Below, piece by piece: positions 2,166 through 25,737 of a stretch of DNA of 38,615 nucleotides. This DNA is from a virus. The notes under the pieces were generated by a model, which worked only from the letters and a program-made list of their open reading frames with translations, made no database searches and was not told the DNA's origin. Position numbers and translations under genes: made by a program. Within the stretch, counting starts at the first letter, position 1. Each line of letters opens with the position of its first letter. The stretch is from the UHGV virus genome UHGV-0210052, one strand, 5' to 3'.

Positions 2166-2442
2166 CCTGCAACTTGCCGTTAAAGGTGAATATTTCGACC
2201 AGATGAAGTCATACGAGAAAACGGAAGAGTATCGCCTGTGTAATGATTACTGGAAAAAGCGAATTATGTTCCGGAAGTATGACCGCCTGATTATCACAAA
2301 GGGATATCCGAAGCGCGACGATTCCAGTCGCAGAATTGATGTTCCGTATGGTGGATATGAAATCAAAACAATCACACATCCGCACTTCGGTGATAAACCG
2401 GTAAAGGTGTTCGCGATAAAGGTGAATATCAGCAATGAATAA
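2158..2442 (+). CDS. hypothetical protein, 94 aa
   Basis: GTG start at 2158 with AGGAGG SD at 2146-2151; the track's 2029 start lies inside the upstream gene. Confidence 0.45.
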   Translation: MANLQLAVKGEYFDQMKSYEKTEEYRLCNDYWKKRIMFRKYDRLIITKGYPKRDDSSRRIDVPYGGYEIKTITHPHFGDKPVKVFAIKVNISNE

Positions 2443-2443
2443 C

Positions 2444-2473
2444 AATCCTCGCACTCGCGGGGATTTCTTTTAT
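2444..2473 (+). terminator. intrinsic terminator-like hairpin
   Basis: 9 bp stem (AATCCTCGC/GCGGGGATT, one G-U) with 4 nt loop followed by TCTTTTAT. Confidence 0.45.
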
Positions 2474-2501
2474 CTGAACTCGCTACGGCGAGTTTTGTTT
2501 T

Positions 2502-2813
2502 ATGGAGATGATTATGGCCTGTTCAACATTCAACCATCTAACGTTACAGAAATACCAGACAGACCCTGAAGATTTATGCTCACTGTGTGGCGGAAATCAT
2601 GGTAAAGCCGCCATGATCGAATGTAAGGACAAAATCCACATTTGCCTTAATTGCGTTGATGTCCTCGTTGATATCAAAAATGAGAGAGAAGATAAAAAGC
2701 GTAGCGAGGCTGTTCGCGCCTTAGATTCATGGATGCGGGATGGATATAGTGCCGCGCAAATTTATGACTTAGCAATATCAAAAGGAGAAATACCAGGAGT
2801 GCGCATCGAATAA
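2502..2813 (+). CDS. hypothetical Cys-rich protein, 103 aa
   Basis: Intact ORF with CxxC ... CxxC pattern; followed by a terminator. Confidence 0.45.
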   Translation: MEMIMACSTFNHLTLQKYQTDPEDLCSLCGGNHGKAAMIECKDKIHICLNCVDVLVDIKNEREDKKRSEAVRALDSWMRDGYSAAQIYDLAISKGEIPGVRIE

Positions 2814-2854
2814 GACGTAACCAACATTCGAATTGAAGAACTGAAAGAACACCA

Positions 2855-2878
2855 AGCCGCCTGATGGCGGTTTTTTAT
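2855..2878 (+). terminator. rho-independent terminator at end of ea gene block
   Basis: AGCCGCC-TGAT-GGCGGTT hairpin followed by TTTTTATTG. Confidence 0.55.
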
Positions 2879-2886
2879 TGCCTGAT

Positions 2887-2902
2887 TTGCAGGTTCGATT
2901 CC
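2887..2902 (+). other. tRNA-Arg (argW) T-arm-like fragment upstream of torI
   Basis: TTGCAGGTTCGATTCC matches the T-stem/loop of E. coli tRNA-Arg(CCU) as recalled; identity ends after CC. Confidence 0.4.
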
Positions 2903-2921
2903 CTATTCGGAGATAGCACTC

Positions 2922-3122
2922 ATGCAACACGAACTACAACCTGATTCACTGGTTGATTTGAAATTCATCATGGCTGATACTGGCTTCGGTAAAACCTTCA
3001 TCTACGACCGGATTAAGTCCGGCGACCTGCCAAAAGCCAAAGTTATCCACGGGCGAGCAAGATGGTTATATCGTGACCATTGTGAATTCAAAAATAAGCT
3101 CTTAAGCCGCGCCAATGGGTAA
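2922..3122 (+). CDS. torI: TorI-like excisionase / recombination directionality factor, 66 aa
   Basis: Protein matches, from memory, the 66 aa TorI excisionase of the KplE1/CPS-53 prophage; lies immediately upstream of attP core and int. Confidence 0.7.
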   Translation: MQHELQPDSLVDLKFIMADTGFGKTFIYDRIKSGDLPKAKVIHGRARWLYRDHCEFKNKLLSRANG

Positions 3123-3137
3123 AATAGCGGGTAAAAT
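3117..3137 (+). repeat. two direct GGGTAAAAT repeats at torI stop (putative arm-type recombinase sites)
   Basis: GGGTAAAAT at 3117-3125 and 3129-3137; same motif recurs at 3327-3371. Confidence 0.45.
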
Positions 3138-3195
3138 ATTTCTCACATCTAAAAAACACCATTCAAATCAATCCCCTGCCTCGTCAAGTAGATGT

Positions 3196-3210
3196 CTGCA
3201 GGGGACACCA
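3196..3210 (+). other. attP core: identity to 3-prime end of tRNA-Arg argW
   Basis: CTGCAGGGGACACCA equals T-stem 3-prime half, acceptor 3-prime strand, discriminator and CCA of argW as recalled; flanked by CCCCTGC/GCAGGGG inverted repeat; lies between torI and int. Confidence 0.6.
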
Positions 3211-3326
3211 TTTATCAGTTCGCTCCCATCCGTACCAGTCCGCAAAATCCCCTGAATATCAAGCCTTACGTATATTCACGGTTCGTCATGGTTCGCGTCA
3301 GATCGTTGACAGCCGCACTCCATGAC

Positions 3327-3371
3327 GGGTAAAAAGTGGATAAAATAATTTTACCCACCGGATTTTTACCC
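3327..3371. repeat. GGGTAAAA motif cluster abutting int start codon
   Basis: GGGTAAAAA at 3327-3335 direct; TTTTACCC at 3349-3356 and 3364-3371 inverted; last copy ends 1 nt before int ATG. Confidence 0.45.
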
Positions 3372-4529
3372 ATGCTCACCGTTAAGCAGATTGAAGCAGC
3401 AAAGCCGAAAGAAAAACCATACCGCCTACTCGATGGTAATGGCCTGTACCTTTATGTCCCTGTATCAGGGAAAAAGGTATGGCAGCTTCGCTACAAGATT
3501 GACGGTAAGGAGAAAATCCTGACTGTCGGAAAATATCCGCTTATGACTTTGCAGGAAGCAAGGGATAAGGCATGGACTGCGAGGAAAGACATCTCGGTTG
3601 GCATCGATCCGGTAAAGGCGAAAAAGTCTTCGTCTAGCAACAATTCATTTAGTGCGATTTACAAGGAATGGTACGAGCACAAGAAGCAAGTCTGGTCAGT
3701 AGGCTATGCAACTGAACTTGCCAAAATGTTTGATGACGACATTTTACCCATCATCGGCGGTCTTGAGATTCAGGATATTGAGCCGATGCAACTGCTGGAA
3801 GTAATCCGCAGATTTGAAGATCGCGGTGCAATGGAGCGAGCCAACAAAGCCCGCAGAAGATGCGGCGAGGTTTTTCGTTACGCTATTGTCACTGGTAGGG
3901 CTAAATATAACCCGGCACCTGACCTTGCTGACGCCATGAAGGGATACCGCAAGAAGAACTTCCCGTTTTTACCTGCCGACCAGATCCCGGCATTCAACAA
4001 AGCACTTGCAACATTTTCAGGAAGTATCGTATCGCTCATTGCGACCAAAGTTTTACGCTACACAGCCCTAAGAACGAAAGAGCTTCGTTCCATGCAATGG
4101 AAGAACGTCGATTTTGAAAACAGGATTATCACCATCGACGCCAGTGTGATGAAGGGACGCAAAATTCATGTTGTCCCGATGTCAGACCAGGTGGTTGAAC
4201 TTCTCACTACGCTAAGCTCAATCACTAAACCAGTATCAGAGTTTGTTTTTGCCGGGCGCAACGATAAGAAAAAGCCAATCTGCGAGAACGCGGTATTGCT
4301 TGTGATCAAACAAATCGGCTATGAGGGTCTGGAAAGCGGTCACGGATTCAGGCATGAATTCAGCACGATTATGAACGAGCACGAATGGCCTGCTGACGCT
4401 ATTGAAGTGCAACTTGCACATGCCAACGGCGGATCTGTGCGCGGGATTTACAACCATGCTCAGTATCTAGATAAGCGCAGAGAAATGATGCAGTGGTGGG
4501 CTGACTGGATTGATGAAAAGGTGGAGTGA
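3372..4529 (+). CDS. intS: tyrosine integrase, IntS (CPS-53/KplE1) type, 385 aa
   Basis: From MLTVKQIEAAKPKEK the protein matches K-12 IntS as recalled; C-terminal R...HGFRH...Y catalytic motifs; track GTG 3336 start rejected. Confidence 0.9.
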   Translation: MLTVKQIEAAKPKEKPYRLLDGNGLYLYVPVSGKKVWQLRYKIDGKEKILTVGKYPLMTLQEARDKAWTARKDISVGIDPVKAKKSSSSNNSFSAIYKEWYEHKKQVWSVGYATELAKMFDDDILPIIGGLEIQDIEPMQLLEVIRRFEDRGAMERANKARRRCGEVFRYAIVTGRAKYNPAPDLADAMKGYRKKNFPFLPADQIPAFNKALATFSGSIVSLIATKVLRYTALRTKELRSMQWKNVDFENRIITIDASVMKGRKIHVVPMSDQVVELLTTLSSITKPVSEFVFAGRNDKKKPICENAVLLVIKQIGYEGLESGHGFRHEFSTIMNEHEWPADAIEVQLAHANGGSVRGIYNHAQYLDKRREMMQWWADWIDEKVE

Positions 4530-4713
4530 TCGATCTTAACCACTATCGGATAGTACAAAGCTTTGTGTGCCTCGTTCATGCCTCACATTACCTGGCAATC
4601 ATCAAATTCACCAGAACGTTCATAAATCGTCTTTGTGATCTGCTTCACTGTTAGACGTAATACTTTTTGCAGTTATTTTATAATCATAGAAATGCTCATC
4701 ATGAGCAGTGAGT

Positions 4714-4744
4714 TGGTGATCTGCGCTGGTAGCCCTGCTATAAT
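4714..4744 (+). promoter_or_regulatory. candidate promoter for acyltransferase gene
   Basis: TATAAT at 4739-4744 with TTGGTG at 4714-4719 (19 bp spacer, suboptimal). Confidence 0.3.
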
Positions 4745-4762
4745 CCTTTGAAATTTTATCTC

Positions 4763-5902
4763 ATGGTGTGCATTATGATCTTTGAGGCGCAAAGTCTTTA
4801 TTTATATTTTTTGTCTCTTTTAGCCGTTGTGTTATGTATTACACTATTGACACGATATAACTATTTTTCTCACATCAACTTTGCAAGTAACAGGTATTTC
4901 TTTATAGACGGATTGCGTGGGATAGCTGCGTTCAGCGTTCTTATTAATCACGGCGCTCATACAATTATTACCAATGGAGTTCAGCCCATATTTATAGACT
5001 TCACAAAATACTCCATCACAGGGAATATGGGTAGCTTCGGTGTACAGATTTTCTTTTGCATTACAGGATTTTTGTTCTTTGATAAATTAATAAAAGGAAA
5101 TAATACATTTGACTGGAATAAATTTTATGTTGCTCGGATAAAAAGACTCGTTCCTCTATATATGCTTACTGCGCTTTTGGTGGCAATTTTAGCTATTATA
5201 TTATCCGGCAGTTCAGCAAGGCTTAACTTTGTTGATTTTTCAAGCTTCCTAAATTTTTTTGGGTTTGGATTTTTGGGCACAGAAATCTTCATTGGCTCTT
5301 TTAACGCATCAGGATTAAATGCGGTGATATGGACTCTACCGTATGAATGGAGGTTTTATTTAATTTTCCCTCTATTATCGATTGCCATCGCAAGCAAGAG
5401 ATATGGTATGTTTGCCATTTCCGCAGTAATGTTACTTGCGGCAAGAGACTTTATGACAGAATTTGTTTTGTGGCCATATTTTATAGTTGGCGCCTTAGGT
5501 GCATATATATTCAATAAATCTTATGTTAACATTGATGATAAATATTGGATATTCTCATTCATTTCTTTCATAGCTATTTTTGTTATCTTCTGCTCTTCCG
5601 CAGACAGCTATGGACGAATCAGATTTGCATGCATTTCATTACTATTTATAATGGTACTTATAACTAAACCAAAAATATTTAAAATAAAATCATTAGTTTA
5701 TTTAGGTGAGGCAAGTTATAGTCTTTATTTGCTGCATTTGCCTATCATGGCTATAGTAATGAGAACAATAAATAATTTCTATAACCTATCGAGCATGTCT
5801 ACTGTGAATTACACAATTTTGATAGCCTTTATTGCATCTCTGTGTAGCGTTATTTCCTGTATCTGTTTTAAGAATTTTGAGTGGAGATTCATTAAAAAGT
5901 AA
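4763..5902 (+). CDS. membrane acyltransferase family 3 (OafA/Oac-like), candidate O-antigen acetyltransferase
   Basis: Multi-TM protein with R...FIDGLRGIAAFSVLINHG acyltransferase_3 motif; very AT-rich versus flanks; start uncertain (track TTG 4748, ATG 4763 or 4775). Confidence 0.75.
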   Translation: MVCIMIFEAQSLYLYFLSLLAVVLCITLLTRYNYFSHINFASNRYFFIDGLRGIAAFSVLINHGAHTIITNGVQPIFIDFTKYSITGNMGSFGVQIFFCITGFLFFDKLIKGNNTFDWNKFYVARIKRLVPLYMLTALLVAILAIILSGSSARLNFVDFSSFLNFFGFGFLGTEIFIGSFNASGLNAVIWTLPYEWRFYLIFPLLSIAIASKRYGMFAISAVMLLAARDFMTEFVLWPYFIVGALGAYIFNKSYVNIDDKYWIFSFISFIAIFVIFCSSADSYGRIRFACISLLFIMVLITKPKIFKIKSLVYLGEASYSLYLLHLPIMAIVMRTINNFYNLSSMSTVNYTILIAFIASLCSVISCICFKNFEWRFIKK

Positions 5903-5934: not shown

Positions 5935-8133
5935 CTACGCTATATTAAGATTACCATATGTATTGTTTCCAAGACCATACCATGCCCAGTTTGTTCCTGA
6001 TGCAGGAGTACCTGCATTGTGAATCATATCGCCTATATTTATCAGCACTTTCCCAGGGTATGTTGTAGTAGGAGCAGTGTCTATTCCAGCAGACACATCG
6101 GCAAAACGCCAACCACAGGAAACCATATCTGCGTTATCTCTAAATTTCTTAATTGAAAACGTGTATCTGTTTCCTCTATATATCATTCCAGCAAAACTAG
6201 GCCAGTCAATAAGTTGATTTACTGGTGAGTTTAAAGTGTTACTAAACTCATTATTTTCAATAACTGGTTCATCGATACGCACACCCGAAGTTGATACTAG
6301 ATATGTAGAATCAAAGTCGTTGTCAGAAATAATTGGAGCATAACCACCAATTTCACAACCTGTATTGCCATGAACAAAATATGACTTATTCCCTCGGTAT
6401 ATAGATTTTCTCCATGTGGGCATTGTTACTTTTACGGCATCAGTTCTATCAAACTGGTTGTTTTCAATCACAAGTCCATAACAATATGCAGACATCTGAG
6501 TTTCAGCATAATCATTTATGGCATAACCACCGCCTTTAAATGTATTTTTTGTTATTTTAATTCCATTGAATGATGTTGAGTAGTCATTACTACCATTCCA
6601 GATAATTAGAATATGAGATGAAAATGTGCCATCCTCGTTCTGATCCCCAATGCTTATATTGCTATCAATAACAACATTCTGCGCTGCAACACCGTTAGAT
6701 TCACCTCCTATCTCAACGAATATTCCTTGTCCTGTTTTGATGTTATTCGATATAACTGCACCACCAGTCACCCCCCAAGGAGTAATCCTAGACTGAATAC
6801 TTATAGGGCTTATAAAGTGATTTCTTTCTGCAATTAAATATTTTGTTCTTGCTGAGCACGCAAAATCTTCACCAAAAGTATGCCATTTTCTGCCTGTTCT
6901 GTACGTTTGGCAGTCAATCATCTTAGCAATTCCATTAAGATTTTTAGTGAAAAATGTATAATTTGTTACCAAATCAGTCCTTACATTGCTAAGAGTTATA
7001 TCCTCATTTGGTATAGCACCGTCACCATCAGCATCTGCCATTACAAAGATTCTTGCAGCCAATACGTCAATATCATTAATAGATCCACTACTCCCCTCAA
7101 GTGCGAAACCAAACCAATTCTCTTGAGGGGTAAACGTGGTATCTGAAGGTCCAGTTGAAAAATTTGTGCATGACTGGTTTAACTTTATACCATTAAATTT
7201 AAAGTTTTTGCAGTTGAATAAACCAAAGCAAACACGCTCAGCCTCACCATTTCCATCTGTATTTATATTTACATCATTATCTGCGTAAACAAATAAATTA
7301 TTTTTACCATTAATTACAATTGCTGTTTTACGTATAACACCTGCAGAGTCATGATATTGCTGGCTGATTTGGTAATTAAACTTTATCTCACCGGCGCTAA
7401 AACGTATTGCTCTAACACCACCAAATTTTGATATACAAGCGTTAACCGATGCCGTTGAATCATGCACTCCGTTAATATCATGTCCAGCCCAAACTGTATG
7501 TATGCCATCGAGCACACAATTCGAACGGATCCAGCAACCAGAGCCACCACCATCACTCTCACCAGTTCCCGCAAGGAAAGCAGCGAGCTCAGCATACGAA
7601 CCATCCCACGGAACTGTGGGGCTAAATATGGTGATACCGTTGTGCTGAGATTTAGGCATGCTGGCATCCCAGTAAAACTGCCCGCCGCCAAAGTTGGTTC
7701 CTGGTACGTATCCAATTACATTTAATGTGTGATTCCCAGCAGGCTCGCTCATTAAGGTATGGATGTCAGGAACATTCTCCATTCGCTGGCTAAACTGATC
7801 GGGATCATACTTCAGCACATTGGGAAAATAGAACTGCTGCGAACCATACGCATCATATACAGCCATGGAATGGCCTTGCACAGTTACGAACTTGGCAATC
7901 TGTCCGTTATATACCGGATATCCGGCAGCGTTAATGATTATTGGTTGCGAAACAGGAACGTGAGAGCCGTCTTCGTTCTCTATATAAACCTGAATCTGGT
8001 TTTCTGAATTTACGGGGTCAGCGTCAATTTTACCGATATAAATTTTACCATTGGCAACTGCTTTAAAAGAACGCGCCATAGTGAAGAGTTGCGAAGGCAT
8101 GCTTACCACAACATTTGCGGTGATATCTGACAT
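5935..8133 (-). CDS. tailspike protein, P22-like head-binding N-terminus plus distinct receptor-binding domain, 732 aa
   Basis: [37 protein letters not shown] matches P22 gp9 N-terminal domain as recalled; GGAG SD before ATG 8133; track start 8181 rejected. Confidence 0.9.
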
Positions 8134-8254
8134 TTCATTGCTCCAGACGAATGATATGATGCAACCATGATGTGATTGCATACCGAAATGGTACTATTGA
8201 GTATTTATCCAGTAGGTTACGATGCCATTCCACCCAACTGGTGAGGCATCAAGG

Positions 8255-25226: not shown

Positions 25227-25471
25227 GTCTTACCCCCAATAAGGGGATTTGCTCTATTTAATTAGGAATAAGGTCGATTACTGATAGAACAAATCCAGGC
25301 TACTGTGTTTAGTAATCAGATTTGTTCGTGACCGATATGCACGGGCAAAACGGCAGGAGGTTGTTAGCGCGACCTCCTGCCACCCGCTTTCACGAAGATC
25401 ATGTGTAGAAGGCAGCAGCGTAACTATCACTGATGAATTCAGGATAGCCAGTGGCTACGGCTCAGTTTGGG

Positions 25472-25598
25472 TTGTGGCGGCCGGAATCGAACCGGCTTCC
25501 ATCGGTGCGCTGCCGATTGCAGTACGCGCGGCGGTCAGCTACATGACTAGTATTTTCACTGTCGCCTATCTGCTAGCTCGCCATTGAGCTTCACCACA
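25472..25598 (-). other. tRNA-like element (T-arm plus acceptor stem) with oversized central region
   Basis: On - strand GCCGG-TTCGATT-CCGGC T-arm, 7 bp acceptor-like pairing (TGTGGTG/CGCCACA) and GCTC...GAGC D-stem, but about 127 nt total. Confidence 0.3.
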
Positions 25599-25674
25599 AC
25601 GATAAGAGCACTGCGCGGCACCTTTCACCAATTCCGCGAGGTCTGCGGGTTCAATGCTCTTACCTGTTGCACAG

Positions 25675-25737
25675 ATATAAAAAATCCCGAAACCGTTATG
25701 CAGGCTCTAACTATTACCTGCGAACTGTTTCGGGATT
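25675..25737 (-). terminator. tR' (late 6S RNA terminator)
   Basis: On - strand AATCCCGAAAC...GTTTCGGGATTTTTTAT, same as the lambda tR' hairpin as recalled. Confidence 0.7.

Follow-up and report, generated by a model that had tools for sequence, protein, structure and literature searches.

What is the role of a T-arm fragment of the host tRNA gene argW that lies ahead of an excisionase gene, when the adjoining piece of the same tRNA gene, lying behind it, is the crossover core? The question is raised by UHGV-0210052, the stretch of 38,615 nt analysed here (the window), on the whole of which coordinates are given. Region 2854-4529 is very probably the known module by which KplE1/HK620/Sf6-type phages recombine specifically at argW; the features of this module are collected in Table 1. 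DNA identity of the region to Sf6, IME10, N7 and HK620 is about 97%. TorI gives a full-length match to PDB 1Z4H, 'Tor inhibition protein', and is 100% identical to the HK620 and Sf6 proteins. IntS is 97-99% identical to the proteins of Sf6, the HK620 group (HK633) and VT2phi_272, and has the Pfam domains Arm-DNA-bind_3 (PF13356), Phage_int_M (PF22022) and Phage_integrase (PF00589).

Table 1. Coordinates of the features of the torI-attP-intS module in the window
Feature	Position	Strand	Description and basis
Intrinsic terminator	2854..2879	+	stem AAGCCGCC/GGCGGTTT plus T run; terminator scan
T-arm fragment TTGCAGGTTCGATTCC	2887..2902	+	argW nt 46-61, the bacterial B side of attB
Shine-Dalgarno GGAG of torI	2910..2913	+	within conserved leader GGAGATA; alignment
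torI (hkaC, Sf6 gene 18)	2922..3122	+	66-aa winged-helix excisionase (recombination directionality factor, RDF)
P arm	3098..3195	+	phage part of attR, sufficient in published in vitro excision
P-arm IntS arm-type sites GGGTAAAA	3117-3124, 3129-3136	+	predicted; direct pair overlapping torI stop codon
attP core CTGCAGGGGACACCAT	3196..3211	+	argW nt 61-75 plus one T; strand-exchange identity block
TorI sites, first block	about 3216-3243	+	CAGTTCGC, CAGTCCGC
TorI sites, second block	about 3279-3306	+	CGGTTCGT, TGGTTCGC, CAGATCGT; ends beside -35
PintS	3306..3335	+	-35 TTGACA 3306-3311; -10 TAAAAA 3330-3335; hexamers quoted in PMC2951348
Arm-type site P'1, GGGTAAAA	3327-3334	+	predicted; contains PintS -10
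Degenerate arm-type copy GGATAAAA	3338-3345	+	one mismatch; absent from the original prediction
P'-arm arm-type sites GGGTAAAA	3349-3356, 3364-3371	-	predicted; last adjoins intS ATG at 3372
intS	3372..4529	+	P4-family tyrosine integrase, 385 aa, N-terminal arm-DNA-binding domain

The order torI, crossover core, intS, as given in the original prediction, is correct and already published. KplE1 (CPS-53), HK620 and Sf6 have the same torI-attP-intS order, with TorI 100%, IntS about 98% and DNA about 97% identical, and share the core CTGCAGGGGACACCAT, the GGGTAAAA repeats on both arms, the five TorI sites and PintS overlapping P'1; there is no difference at the level of the module. Their argW module is reportedly described in the work of Panis, Mejean, Ansaldi and co-workers, by Clark et al. 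2001 and by Casjens et al. 2004. Since it is the KplE1/HK620/Sf6 paradigm of integrase autoregulation, meeting it once more is nothing unusual. The module itself is already known, and the window is another mosaic P22-like phage that carries it. The GenBank records of HK620 and Sf6 already annotate the attP core and promoters in it.

From left to right, the terminator is followed by the torI leader, torI and a P arm with two predicted IntS arm sites, then by the 16-nt core and a P' arm, and intS closes the module; the P' arm would hold five TorI sites as well as three to four IntS arm sites overlapping PintS. Strand exchange would be confined to the core. On integration, argW would be restored at attL and torI would end up at the far prophage end, next to attR. 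The near-identity to studied modules and the E. coli prophage junctions lead us to infer that this phage would integrate at argW and depend on TorI for excision in its host. The left edge of the module is equally recognizable. The terminator closes the early-left gene block just ahead of the conserved module, similarity to 933W/Stx phages stops at 2879, and similarity to K-12 KplE1 starts at about 2872. At least three different upstream contexts can be found in E. coli prophages, each ending in a terminator-like hairpin at this edge.

Comparison with the prophage junctions of K-12 can be used to locate the crossover. The left arm of the window is 94% identical to K-12 attR and the right arm 94% identical to K-12 attL, and the switch between attR-like and attL-like arms falls exactly at CTGCAGGGGACACCAT. 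It occurs there alone, which bears out the proposal that only the second argW fragment is the crossover core. The same block was reported as the 16-nt core of KplE1 (PMC2951348), and the HK620 and Sf6 records label it as the attP core. Primer attR-IHF2, CTCTTAAGCCGCGCCAATGG (PMC3509656), maps to window 3098-3117, and in vitro excision in that study worked with an attR that is without the upstream T-arm fragment. The P arm holds TCCCCTGC (3172-3179), an inverted copy of the core's GCAGGGGA, and the C-side sequence adjoining the core is GTAGATGTC here and TTCGATGTA in most other lineages. Every related xis-attP-int module found targets argW (TGCAGGGGAC-type cores), and the gene arrangement differs in more distant P4-family modules (F116 group, P4).

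Exact copies of the GGGTAAAA repeat number 8 in the window, where 0.8 would be expected, and 0/100 shuffles reached this count. Five copies bracket the core and reach the intS ATG at the positions originally predicted; a sixth, at 3742-3749(-) within intS, had been overlooked. Conservation in related phages was found as well, the P-arm pair being kept as GGGTAAA-N4-6-GGTAAA in nearly all related modules. The HK620 record annotates these repeats as attP repeats and, judged by sequence, they are IntS arm-type sites. The TAAAAA hexamer of PintS starts 18 nt after TTGACA, inside the site at 3327-3334, and the Sf6 record has 'pX, putative int promoter' at the equivalent place. In KplE1, P'1 overlaps the PintS -10 and intS is repressed by both IntS and TorI (PMC2951348). 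Of the original suggestion of recombinase or RDF arm sites overlapping the int promoter, the first half stands, with integrase arm sites of which P'1 overlaps the -10; the RDF sites are a different motif. TorI sites have the sequence GTTCG, GATCG or GTCCG and lie in five copies, in two blocks, between the core and the PintS -35 (PMC2951348). The window has the order GTTCG, GTCCG, GTTCG, GTTCG, GATCG at the published spacing (3216-3306), the positions being those given by transferring the published geometry by offset from the intS ATG. The same P'-arm layout is found in Klebsiella, Erwinia and metagenomic relatives.

The module can be compared with better-known systems. Like lambda, it relies on a heterobivalent tyrosine integrase that recognizes arm- and core-type sites, on a winged-helix RDF and on intasomes assisted by IHF, and strands are exchanged within a short identity block. 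However, its RDF sites are on the P' arm (attL) rather than the P arm, its xis and int genes flank attP and so end up at opposite prophage ends, its int has an autoregulated promoter within attP, and it integrates at a tRNA gene 3' end; lambda is also without a bacterial B-arm copy upstream of xis. With other P4-family integrases it shares the Arm-DNA-bind_3 (DUF4102) N-terminal domain, an identity block from the T-stem 3' strand to CCA, and a tRNA gene that is rebuilt at attL. Integrases at tRNA gene 3' ends have reportedly been classified by sublocation (Williams 2002). Displaced tRNA fragments near P4-family elements would normally be expected to be 3' ends at the distal junction, whereas here a 5'-side T-arm piece lies inside the phage, with the RDF gene between this piece and the core.

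The two argW pieces themselves were aligned to argW from an E. coli chromosome (L004 541-615), GTCCTCTTAGTTAAATGGATATAACGAGCCCCTCCTAAGGGCTAATTGCAGGTTCGATTCCTGCAGGGGACACCA. TTGCAGGTTCGATTCC matches exactly over 16 nt, and CTGCAGGGGACACCA (3196-3210) is an exact match to nt 61-75; the two overlap by C61 and jointly tile the last 30 nt of argW. They lie on the same strand, 293 nt apart, with torI between them, so that the coordinates, sequence and identity of two adjacent argW pieces flanking torI were all confirmed. In a dinucleotide-Markov resampling of the window (n=300), the longest exact argW match never exceeded 14 nt, against 16 observed, and a chance origin of the T-arm fragment was rejected for this reason. 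Only nt 46-75 of argW are present, in two pieces; the complete cloverleaf is absent, ARAGORN found no intact tRNA gene in the window, and there was no Rfam match at the gathering threshold. A second exact GGTTCGATTCC at 25483-25493(-) belongs to an unrelated tRNA-like remnant and was discarded as a further operator. The T-arm fragment starts with two nucleotides of the variable loop, continues through the T-stem 5' strand and the T-loop, and takes in the first two nucleotides of the T-stem 3' strand; the overlap region would follow directly. It is also present in KplE1, HK620 and Sf6.

Could the fragment be a crossover site in its own right? This was rejected, given that the K-12 attL/attR junctions switch only at the core and that an attR without the fragment is competent for excision. 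No lysogen junction fell at the fragment among the junctions compared. A prophage remnant of the form argW::torI was likewise rejected: the 5' part of argW joined to the fragment and torI was found in 0/5,426 complete E. coli genomes. The sequence after GATTCC is CTATTCGGAG and not TGCAGGGGAC. As the overlap region and the inverted partner half-site are both missing, the fragment can be a half-site or an operator at most, and no att site.

Comparison across genera reveals which part of the fragment is kept. Its conserved core is CAGGTTCGATTCC (2890-2902), located in the torI leader with GTTCG beginning 29 nt before the ATG. The element CAGGTTCGATT(T)CC is found upstream of the RDF gene in modules of Escherichia, Citrobacter, Enterobacter, Serratia, Pantoea, Edwardsiella, Erwinia and Salmonella, and also in IMG/VR contigs, in Erwinia phages Midgardsormr38 and phiEt88 and in Salmonella phage Emek. 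It occurs across genera and with variable flanks in 16/37 distinct RDF peptide groups, an estimate of conservation that is partly conditioned on the motif having been found and that comes from lineages which are not independent, and it is kept even before RDFs 39-52% identical to TorI. In 16 representative lineages, the distance from GTTCG to the ATG is 26-35 nt, usually 28-29. Third-codon positions of torI in these lineages are 45-73% identical to the window, the leader is 68-88% identical, and the next 46 nt upstream 35-65%. Where the RDF is divergent, leader and coding identity are 88% versus 64-66% in Emek and 71-74% versus 58-61% in phiEt88. Tandem copies of the element occur in some lineages (L112-L114, L243, L116).

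The match to argW itself is less uniform. The full 16-nt identity is restricted to the E. coli lineage, and elsewhere three to four nucleotides at the 5' side vary. In Serratia and Pantoea the tRNA identity extends two more nucleotides into the overlap (CAGGTTCGATTCCTG), and a large clade has an extra T (GATTTCC) that shifts the register relative to B. The element is absent from the Klebsiella Chronis group, in which xis and the gene before it overlap, and from Dryocola, Tatumella, the Proteus/Arsenophonus group and Erwinia phage EhrS_49; as many of the modules lacking it look functional, it must be dispensable. Nevertheless, a core of 12-13 nt conserved at a near-fixed distance between unrelated flanks argues for purifying selection, and the fragment is probably a selected cis element, neither a crossover site nor a neutral relic. 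In the part of the literature covered, no description of the fragment as a tRNA-derived or conserved element was found, and a text search of its sequence returned nothing; the HK620 record labels it only as a putative 'pI' promoter and cII site. This conserved T-arm copy before torI is the only feature of the module not found already described, and it probably has a function. A 12/15 similarity can also be seen between 2881-2895 and 2940-2954, which by estimate is at chance level.

Several other explanations of the fragment must be weighed. One is that it is a neutral scar of an old recombination, either a longer attP block split by torI or a capture of argW, which would persist merely through its place in a short leader linked to torI. 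The exact tiling of argW by the two fragments fits this, as do the TTCGAT retained on the attP C side, consistent with a formerly longer identity block, and the dispensability of the element in several lineages and in the attR used for in vitro excision. The original prediction had proposed a relic of a longer att site or of module exchange, and what holds of it is the position: the fragment is next to a mosaic junction, close to where the conserved module begins on the left. The part that fails is the relic itself, since the core is conserved across genera. An intact 12-13-mer is not expected where torI third-codon positions have fallen to 45-73% identity and the directly preceding DNA is unrelated; the distance to the ATG stays within its narrow range, the leader is better conserved than the coding sequence in Emek and phiEt88, and the complete E. 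coli genomes searched contain no intermediate. A relic is therefore improbable. The annotated alternative, a cII-activated 'pI' promoter making integrase during lysogenisation, with the TTGC of the fragment as the second half of TTGCCTGATTTGC, can be given very little credence. In HK620, the features 'promoter: phage integration' and 'protein_bind: cII protein' do span window 2877-2915, and the Sf6 record has the same annotation by homology. However, the spacing is TTGC-N5-TTGC rather than the canonical N6, and N5 matches occur at chance (4 found, 3.8 expected). The second TTGC is not kept in other genera (TTCC, TGAC, TTAC) although the block 3' of it is conserved, and a promoter scan of the interval of roughly 40 nt from the terminator to the Shine-Dalgarno called nothing resembling a sigma-70 site. 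A promoter at this place would also yield excisionase along with integrase. The annotation is older than the identification of hkaC as an RDF, and intS has a mapped promoter of its own (PMC2951348).

The remaining alternatives are regulatory. TorI might bind its own leader and limit its own synthesis, a reading suggested by the GTTCG in the element, the pentamer of the published TorI sites. It is the exact pentamer whose mutation abolishes TorI action at I1, I3 and I4 (PMC2951348). Variants that break the tRNA sequence, CAGTTCG (L133/L158) and AAGTTCG (Emek), still fit the P'-arm (C/T)AGTTCG, and the tandem copies of some lineages would also suit an operator. Self-regulation is, moreover, common among RDFs. 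Yet with a weight matrix made from 25 P'-arm sites, located by motif and not by footprint coordinates, the element scores -2.8 bits and ranks 3134 of 77,206 positions. The base 3' of GTTCG is C or T in 25/25 sites, whereas all copies of the element have A there, and nothing in TorI sites corresponds to the conserved ATT(T)CC tail. TorI binds its five phased sites with high cooperativity (PMC3509656), whereas the element offers one site, or two at the out-of-phase spacing of 13 or 17 nt. Likewise, phiEt88 retains the element though its P' arm has CCGATGTAAC repeats instead of GTTCG, a single data point because 0/6 of its relatives in IMG/VR carry the element. In the accessible literature, the five TorI sites do not include the T-arm sequence of attL, which is identical to the element, and on balance TorI is an improbable ligand. 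A leader function without IntS or TorI, such as a host or phage factor acting on the 13-mer or an RNA effect on torI translation or termination, is unlikely too, if less remote. For instance, UUCC could pair with the GGAG Shine-Dalgarno, or termination could be affected just past the terminator. In length, the conserved CAGGTTCGATTCC exceeds both the TorI pentamer and the TTCGAT that it has in common with the C site, and the element is transcribed in the torI leader, directly 3' of an intrinsic terminator. CAGG can pair with a nearby CCTG, which lies upstream in Citrobacter-type and downstream in Edwardsiella-type leaders, but such a change of side between lineages counts against a common structure. 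RNAalifold gave essentially no consensus structure for the leaders (-0.03 kcal/mol) and no compensatory pairs. An RNA mimic of the T-arm, or a conserved hairpin, was rejected because ACAGG/CCTGT can form in Edwardsiella-type leaders and not in those of E. coli, Citrobacter and others. As for a DNA-binding protein, we know of no bacterial factor for T-arm DNA.

The best explanation of the whole, to which we give slightly less than an even chance, is the known module with the T-arm fragment as a conserved cis element of its own within the torI leader. The fragment would be an operator that ties torI expression to the recombination machinery. Its most likely binder, although clearly at less than an even chance, would be IntS. 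It would bind through its core-type specificity, the B half-site being the T-arm DNA that the catalytic/core-binding domain of IntS must contact on the chromosome. The element equals the B side of attB over 11-16 nt, and in most lineages the C side has the consensus aaTTCGATGTa beside TGCAGG, with TTCGAT common to B and aligned identically. On the other side, C sites lack an equivalent of the conserved CAG 5' of GTTCG, and in the lambda paradigm lone core-type half-sites are weak integrase targets. Bound IntS could possibly form a bridge with P1/P2, the arm sites that lie about 220 bp further downstream, which would place torI inside a loop, and the effect would be a roadblock or a translational block just past the terminator and about 8 nt ahead of the Shine-Dalgarno. 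Such an element may have originated when the argW B arm was joined to the region upstream of torI, for instance through integrase action at a secondary site.

Taken further, the T-arm copy might be an unrecognised regulatory site, a decoy of the attB half-site that the integrase senses to set the level of excisionase, though this we regard as doubtful. With such a decoy, the decision between integration and excision would be coupled to integrase occupancy, possibly with looping to P1/P2 around torI, and the bacterial target sequence would be reused as an operator. The fragment may also mark a point of module exchange between phages. The torI promoter and its leader were termed 'non-characterized' (PMC2951348), and the conserved 12-13-nt element found there has the same sequence as the half-site of the integrase's chromosomal target. 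If IntS or another factor binds it, the element would supply a control point so far missing from the expression of excisionase, which is said to determine whether prophages of this family excise, and it would be an unusual case of an operator that mimics attB. It is also suggested that the 'pI/cII' annotation in the HK620 and Sf6 records be revisited.

Two fragments of the argW tRNA gene do flank the excisionase gene torI, as the original prediction described. Compared with argW from the E. coli chromosome (L004 541-615), TTGCAGGTTCGATTCC at 2887-2902 is identical to argW nt 46-61 and CTGCAGGGGACACCA at 3196-3210 to nt 61-75, with C61 common to both, so that between them they cover the final 30 nt of the gene without a gap. 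The longest exact argW match is 16 nt, against no more than 14 nt in any of 300 sequences resampled from the window under a dinucleotide Markov model. The five copies of the repeat GGGTAAAA predicted around the core were likewise found in place (8 copies in the window, 0.8 expected), to which can be added a sixth exact copy at 3742-3749 (-), within the intS coding region at a place annotated as an attP repeat in HK620, and a one-mismatch copy at 3338-3345.

Layout of the integration module, with gene order taken from the sequence of 2400-4800 and the ORF list
Feature	Position or extent	Strand	Place in module
Intrinsic terminator	2854-2879	+	first in module order
torI leader	42 nt	+	between terminator and torI
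torI	2922-3122	+	after leader
Non-coding stretch	249 nt	+	torI to intS
intS	3372 (ATG) to 4529	+	

The genome is that of a mosaic P22-like (Lederbergvirus-type) phage, for which the best phage record spans at most 57% of the first 25 kb; over 2800-3450, identity is 97-98% with Sf6, IME10, N7, HK620 and HK633. TorI matches the solved structure 1Z4H ('Tor inhibition protein') over its full length, and the integrase IntS has Arm-DNA-bind_3, Phage_int_M and Phage_integrase domains. A 16-nt core, CTGCAGGGGACACCAT, is present in duplicate at the borders of the prophage KplE1, whose attL carries five TorI sites in two blocks, with motifs GTTCG, GATCG and GTCCG (PMC2951348). In the same work, the IntS arm-type P' sites have TAAA in common, P'1 overlaps the -10 (TAaAAa) of PintS, whose -35 is TTGACA, IntS and TorI each repress intS, and HK620, Sf6 and CUS-3 share the conserved module (PMC2951348). 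Core, TorI sites, arm-type sites and PintS can all be recognized in the window sequence. GenBank records also annotate the attP core and attP repeats in HK620 (one repeat inside int), and the core and int promoter in Sf6. Most of the earlier interpretation is therefore already in the literature on the KplE1/HK620/Sf6 module. That the second fragment alone is the crossover core is borne out by comparison with prophage junctions, since identity switches exactly there from K-12 attR (L003; 94% left of the core) to an attL (L004; 94% right of it). The repeats had been read as recombinase or excisionase arm sites overlapping the int promoter; integrase arm sites and promoter overlap hold, but the sites of the excisionase, the recombination directionality factor (RDF), are a different motif.

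Several smaller repeats surround the core. Each arm has a copy of AATCCCCTG, at 3170-3178 and 3246-3254, and the core's GCAGGGGA (3198-3205) is matched perfectly in inverted orientation by TCCCCTGC (3172-3179), 18 nt away. The left copy (CCCCTGC) is kept in almost all related modules. ACACCATT, the core's 3' end, recurs at 3156-3163. These repeats may be core-type or accessory sites. A 46-aa ORF (3115-3255, +), homologous to HK620 hkaB and Sf6 gene 17, spans the P arm and attP core and would be cut in two on integration. It matches no Pfam family and probably does not represent a real gene.

A testable lead within this known system is that the upstream T-arm fragment, in the torI leader, mimics attB. 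The fragment is not specific to the window phage: it also precedes torI in K-12 KplE1, HK620 and 80 IMG/VR contigs encoding identical TorI. At least three different upstream contexts precede it in these contigs, each ending in a terminator-like hairpin. The left edge of the conserved module lies ~7-15 nt left of the fragment; 933W-type similarity ends at 2879 and KplE1 similarity begins at ~2872.

Conservation of the element can be followed well beyond E. coli. Using RDF homologues from species-representative genomes, IMG/VR (four different queries) and annotated phages, the block CAGGTTCGATT(T)CC was found before the RDF start codon in Enterobacter, Citrobacter, Serratia, Pantoea and Edwardsiella modules, as well as in Erwinia phages Midgardsormr38 and phiEt88 and Salmonella phage Emek. 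In 16 representative lineages the GTTCG-to-ATG distance is 26-35 nt, usually 28-29, and torI third-codon positions have 45-73% identity to the window. The element's 5' 3-4 nt vary, with TTGC in the E. coli lineage only and TTCC, TGAC, TTAC or CGCC elsewhere. In a motif-blind count, GTTCGAT lay within 75 nt upstream in 16 of 37 distinct RDF peptide groups; groups without it mostly have no intergenic leader, as where xis of the Klebsiella Chronis group runs into the gene before it. In Dryocola the module seems to have lost the DNA between two CTGG repeats. Across lineages that are not independent, and in an alignment partly anchored on the motif, leader identity is 68-88%, while the next 46 nt upstream reach 35-65%, about that of a global alignment of unrelated DNA. 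Conservation is higher in the leader than in the gene for the two RDFs that diverge most (Emek, RDF 52% identical: 88% versus 64-66% coding; phiEt88, RDF 39% identical: 71-74% versus 58-61%). Even with those limits, a neutral scar does not readily account for this pattern. The suggestion that the upstream fragment is a relic is probably too weak, because it behaves as a conserved leader element across genera.

What the element does can be approached by weighing several readings. As a crossover site it fails, given that the attR/attL switch maps to the core and not to the fragment. In vitro excisive recombination used a 135-bp attR starting at primer CTCTTAAGCCGCGCCAATGG (PMC3509656), which maps to 3098-3117, ~200 bp downstream, and so did not need the fragment. 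Nor is it a conserved RNA structure. In the HK620 record the region bears the label 'promoter, phage integration' and TTGCCTGATTTGC is marked as a 'cII protein' site; the spacing of that site is N5, not N6, the window has no more N5 sites than chance would give, and the second TTGC is not conserved elsewhere. Despite its GTTCG, the fragment is also a poor TorI site, scoring -2.8 bits (rank 3134/77,206) with a weight matrix that combines 25 P'-arm sites drawn from five lineages; every copy of the element has A following GTTCG, and none of those sites does. phiEt88, moreover, has retained AGGTTCGATTCCC intact, likewise at a distance of 29 nt, with P'-arm repeats of CCGATGTAAC type rather than GTTCG, which counts against a TorI site.

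The likeness to attB points elsewhere. The fragment equals B, the bacterial left half of attB, being the argW DNA directly left of the overlap region. C, the phage left half of attP, has the consensus aaTTCGATGTa adjoining TGCAGG in the same register (39 distinct variants; GTAGATGTC in the E. coli lineage), and TTCGAT is common to C and B (ggTTCGATTCc). In Serratia and Pantoea the tRNA identity runs two nt further into the overlap (…GATTCCTG), which looks like B plus the first overlap bases joined to foreign DNA. The element would then originate from the B arm of argW, possibly through the integrase acting on a secondary site that lay upstream of torI. We infer that it may have been kept as a half-site operator for the integrase core-binding domain. 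It follows the terminator directly, ~8 nt ahead of the Shine-Dalgarno sequence, with the P1/P2 arm sites ~220 bp downstream at torI's other end. Against such an operator stand an extra T in a large clade and the unexplained conservation of CAG. Isolated core-type half-sites are, in addition, weak integrase targets in the lambda paradigm.

Other observations concern related modules. Tandem T-arm-like elements occur in Midgardsormr38 (L243, ~830-900) and L112-L114 (CAGGTTCGATTCCC twice, 17-nt period) and in L116 (GTTCGATTCC/GTTCGATTACC, 13-nt period). The argW modules of phiEt88 (L242) and Emek (L241) carry the arm-type repeat GCGGGCATA instead of GGGTAAAA between xis and int; the presumed RDF sites of phiEt88 (CCGATGTAAC) also differ. 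Both modules keep the core and the leader element, and so illustrate arm-binding and RDF specificities swapped around a constant core. In Emek (JQ806763.1) the annotation of an excisionase-like CDS, 835-1098, takes the GTG at 835 as start codon; judging by the conserved leader, AAGTTCGATTCCCAAACCGGAGATAAAACCT, and an ATG at 895, translation probably begins 60 nt further downstream. Contigs L011 and L028, labelled as Actinomycetes and Parachlamydiaceae MAGs, hold enterobacterial-type torI modules (85-92% identity) and look like contamination or mis-binning.

Elsewhere in the window, a tRNA-like remnant at 25469-25527 (-) has a perfect T-arm (GCCGG TTCGATT CCGGC) followed by CGCCACAACCC. It gives a sub-threshold Rfam tmRNA match (20.2 bits, E 3.4e-6) in which only the tRNA-like domain aligns; ARAGORN calls nothing there, and no ORF of at least 80 aa overlaps 25300-25700. 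HK75 and several further phages of lambdoid or P22-like type carry the 241-nt remnant region, 98% conserved, and in one Salmonella phage record a partial match coincides with an annotated tRNA-Ser. Between intS and the tailspike gene (5935-8181, -; P22-type head-binding domain) lies a 384-aa Acyl_transf_3 membrane acyltransferase gene (4748-5902, +), a likely serotype-converting moron whose position is held in Sf6 by the O-antigen acetylase gene.
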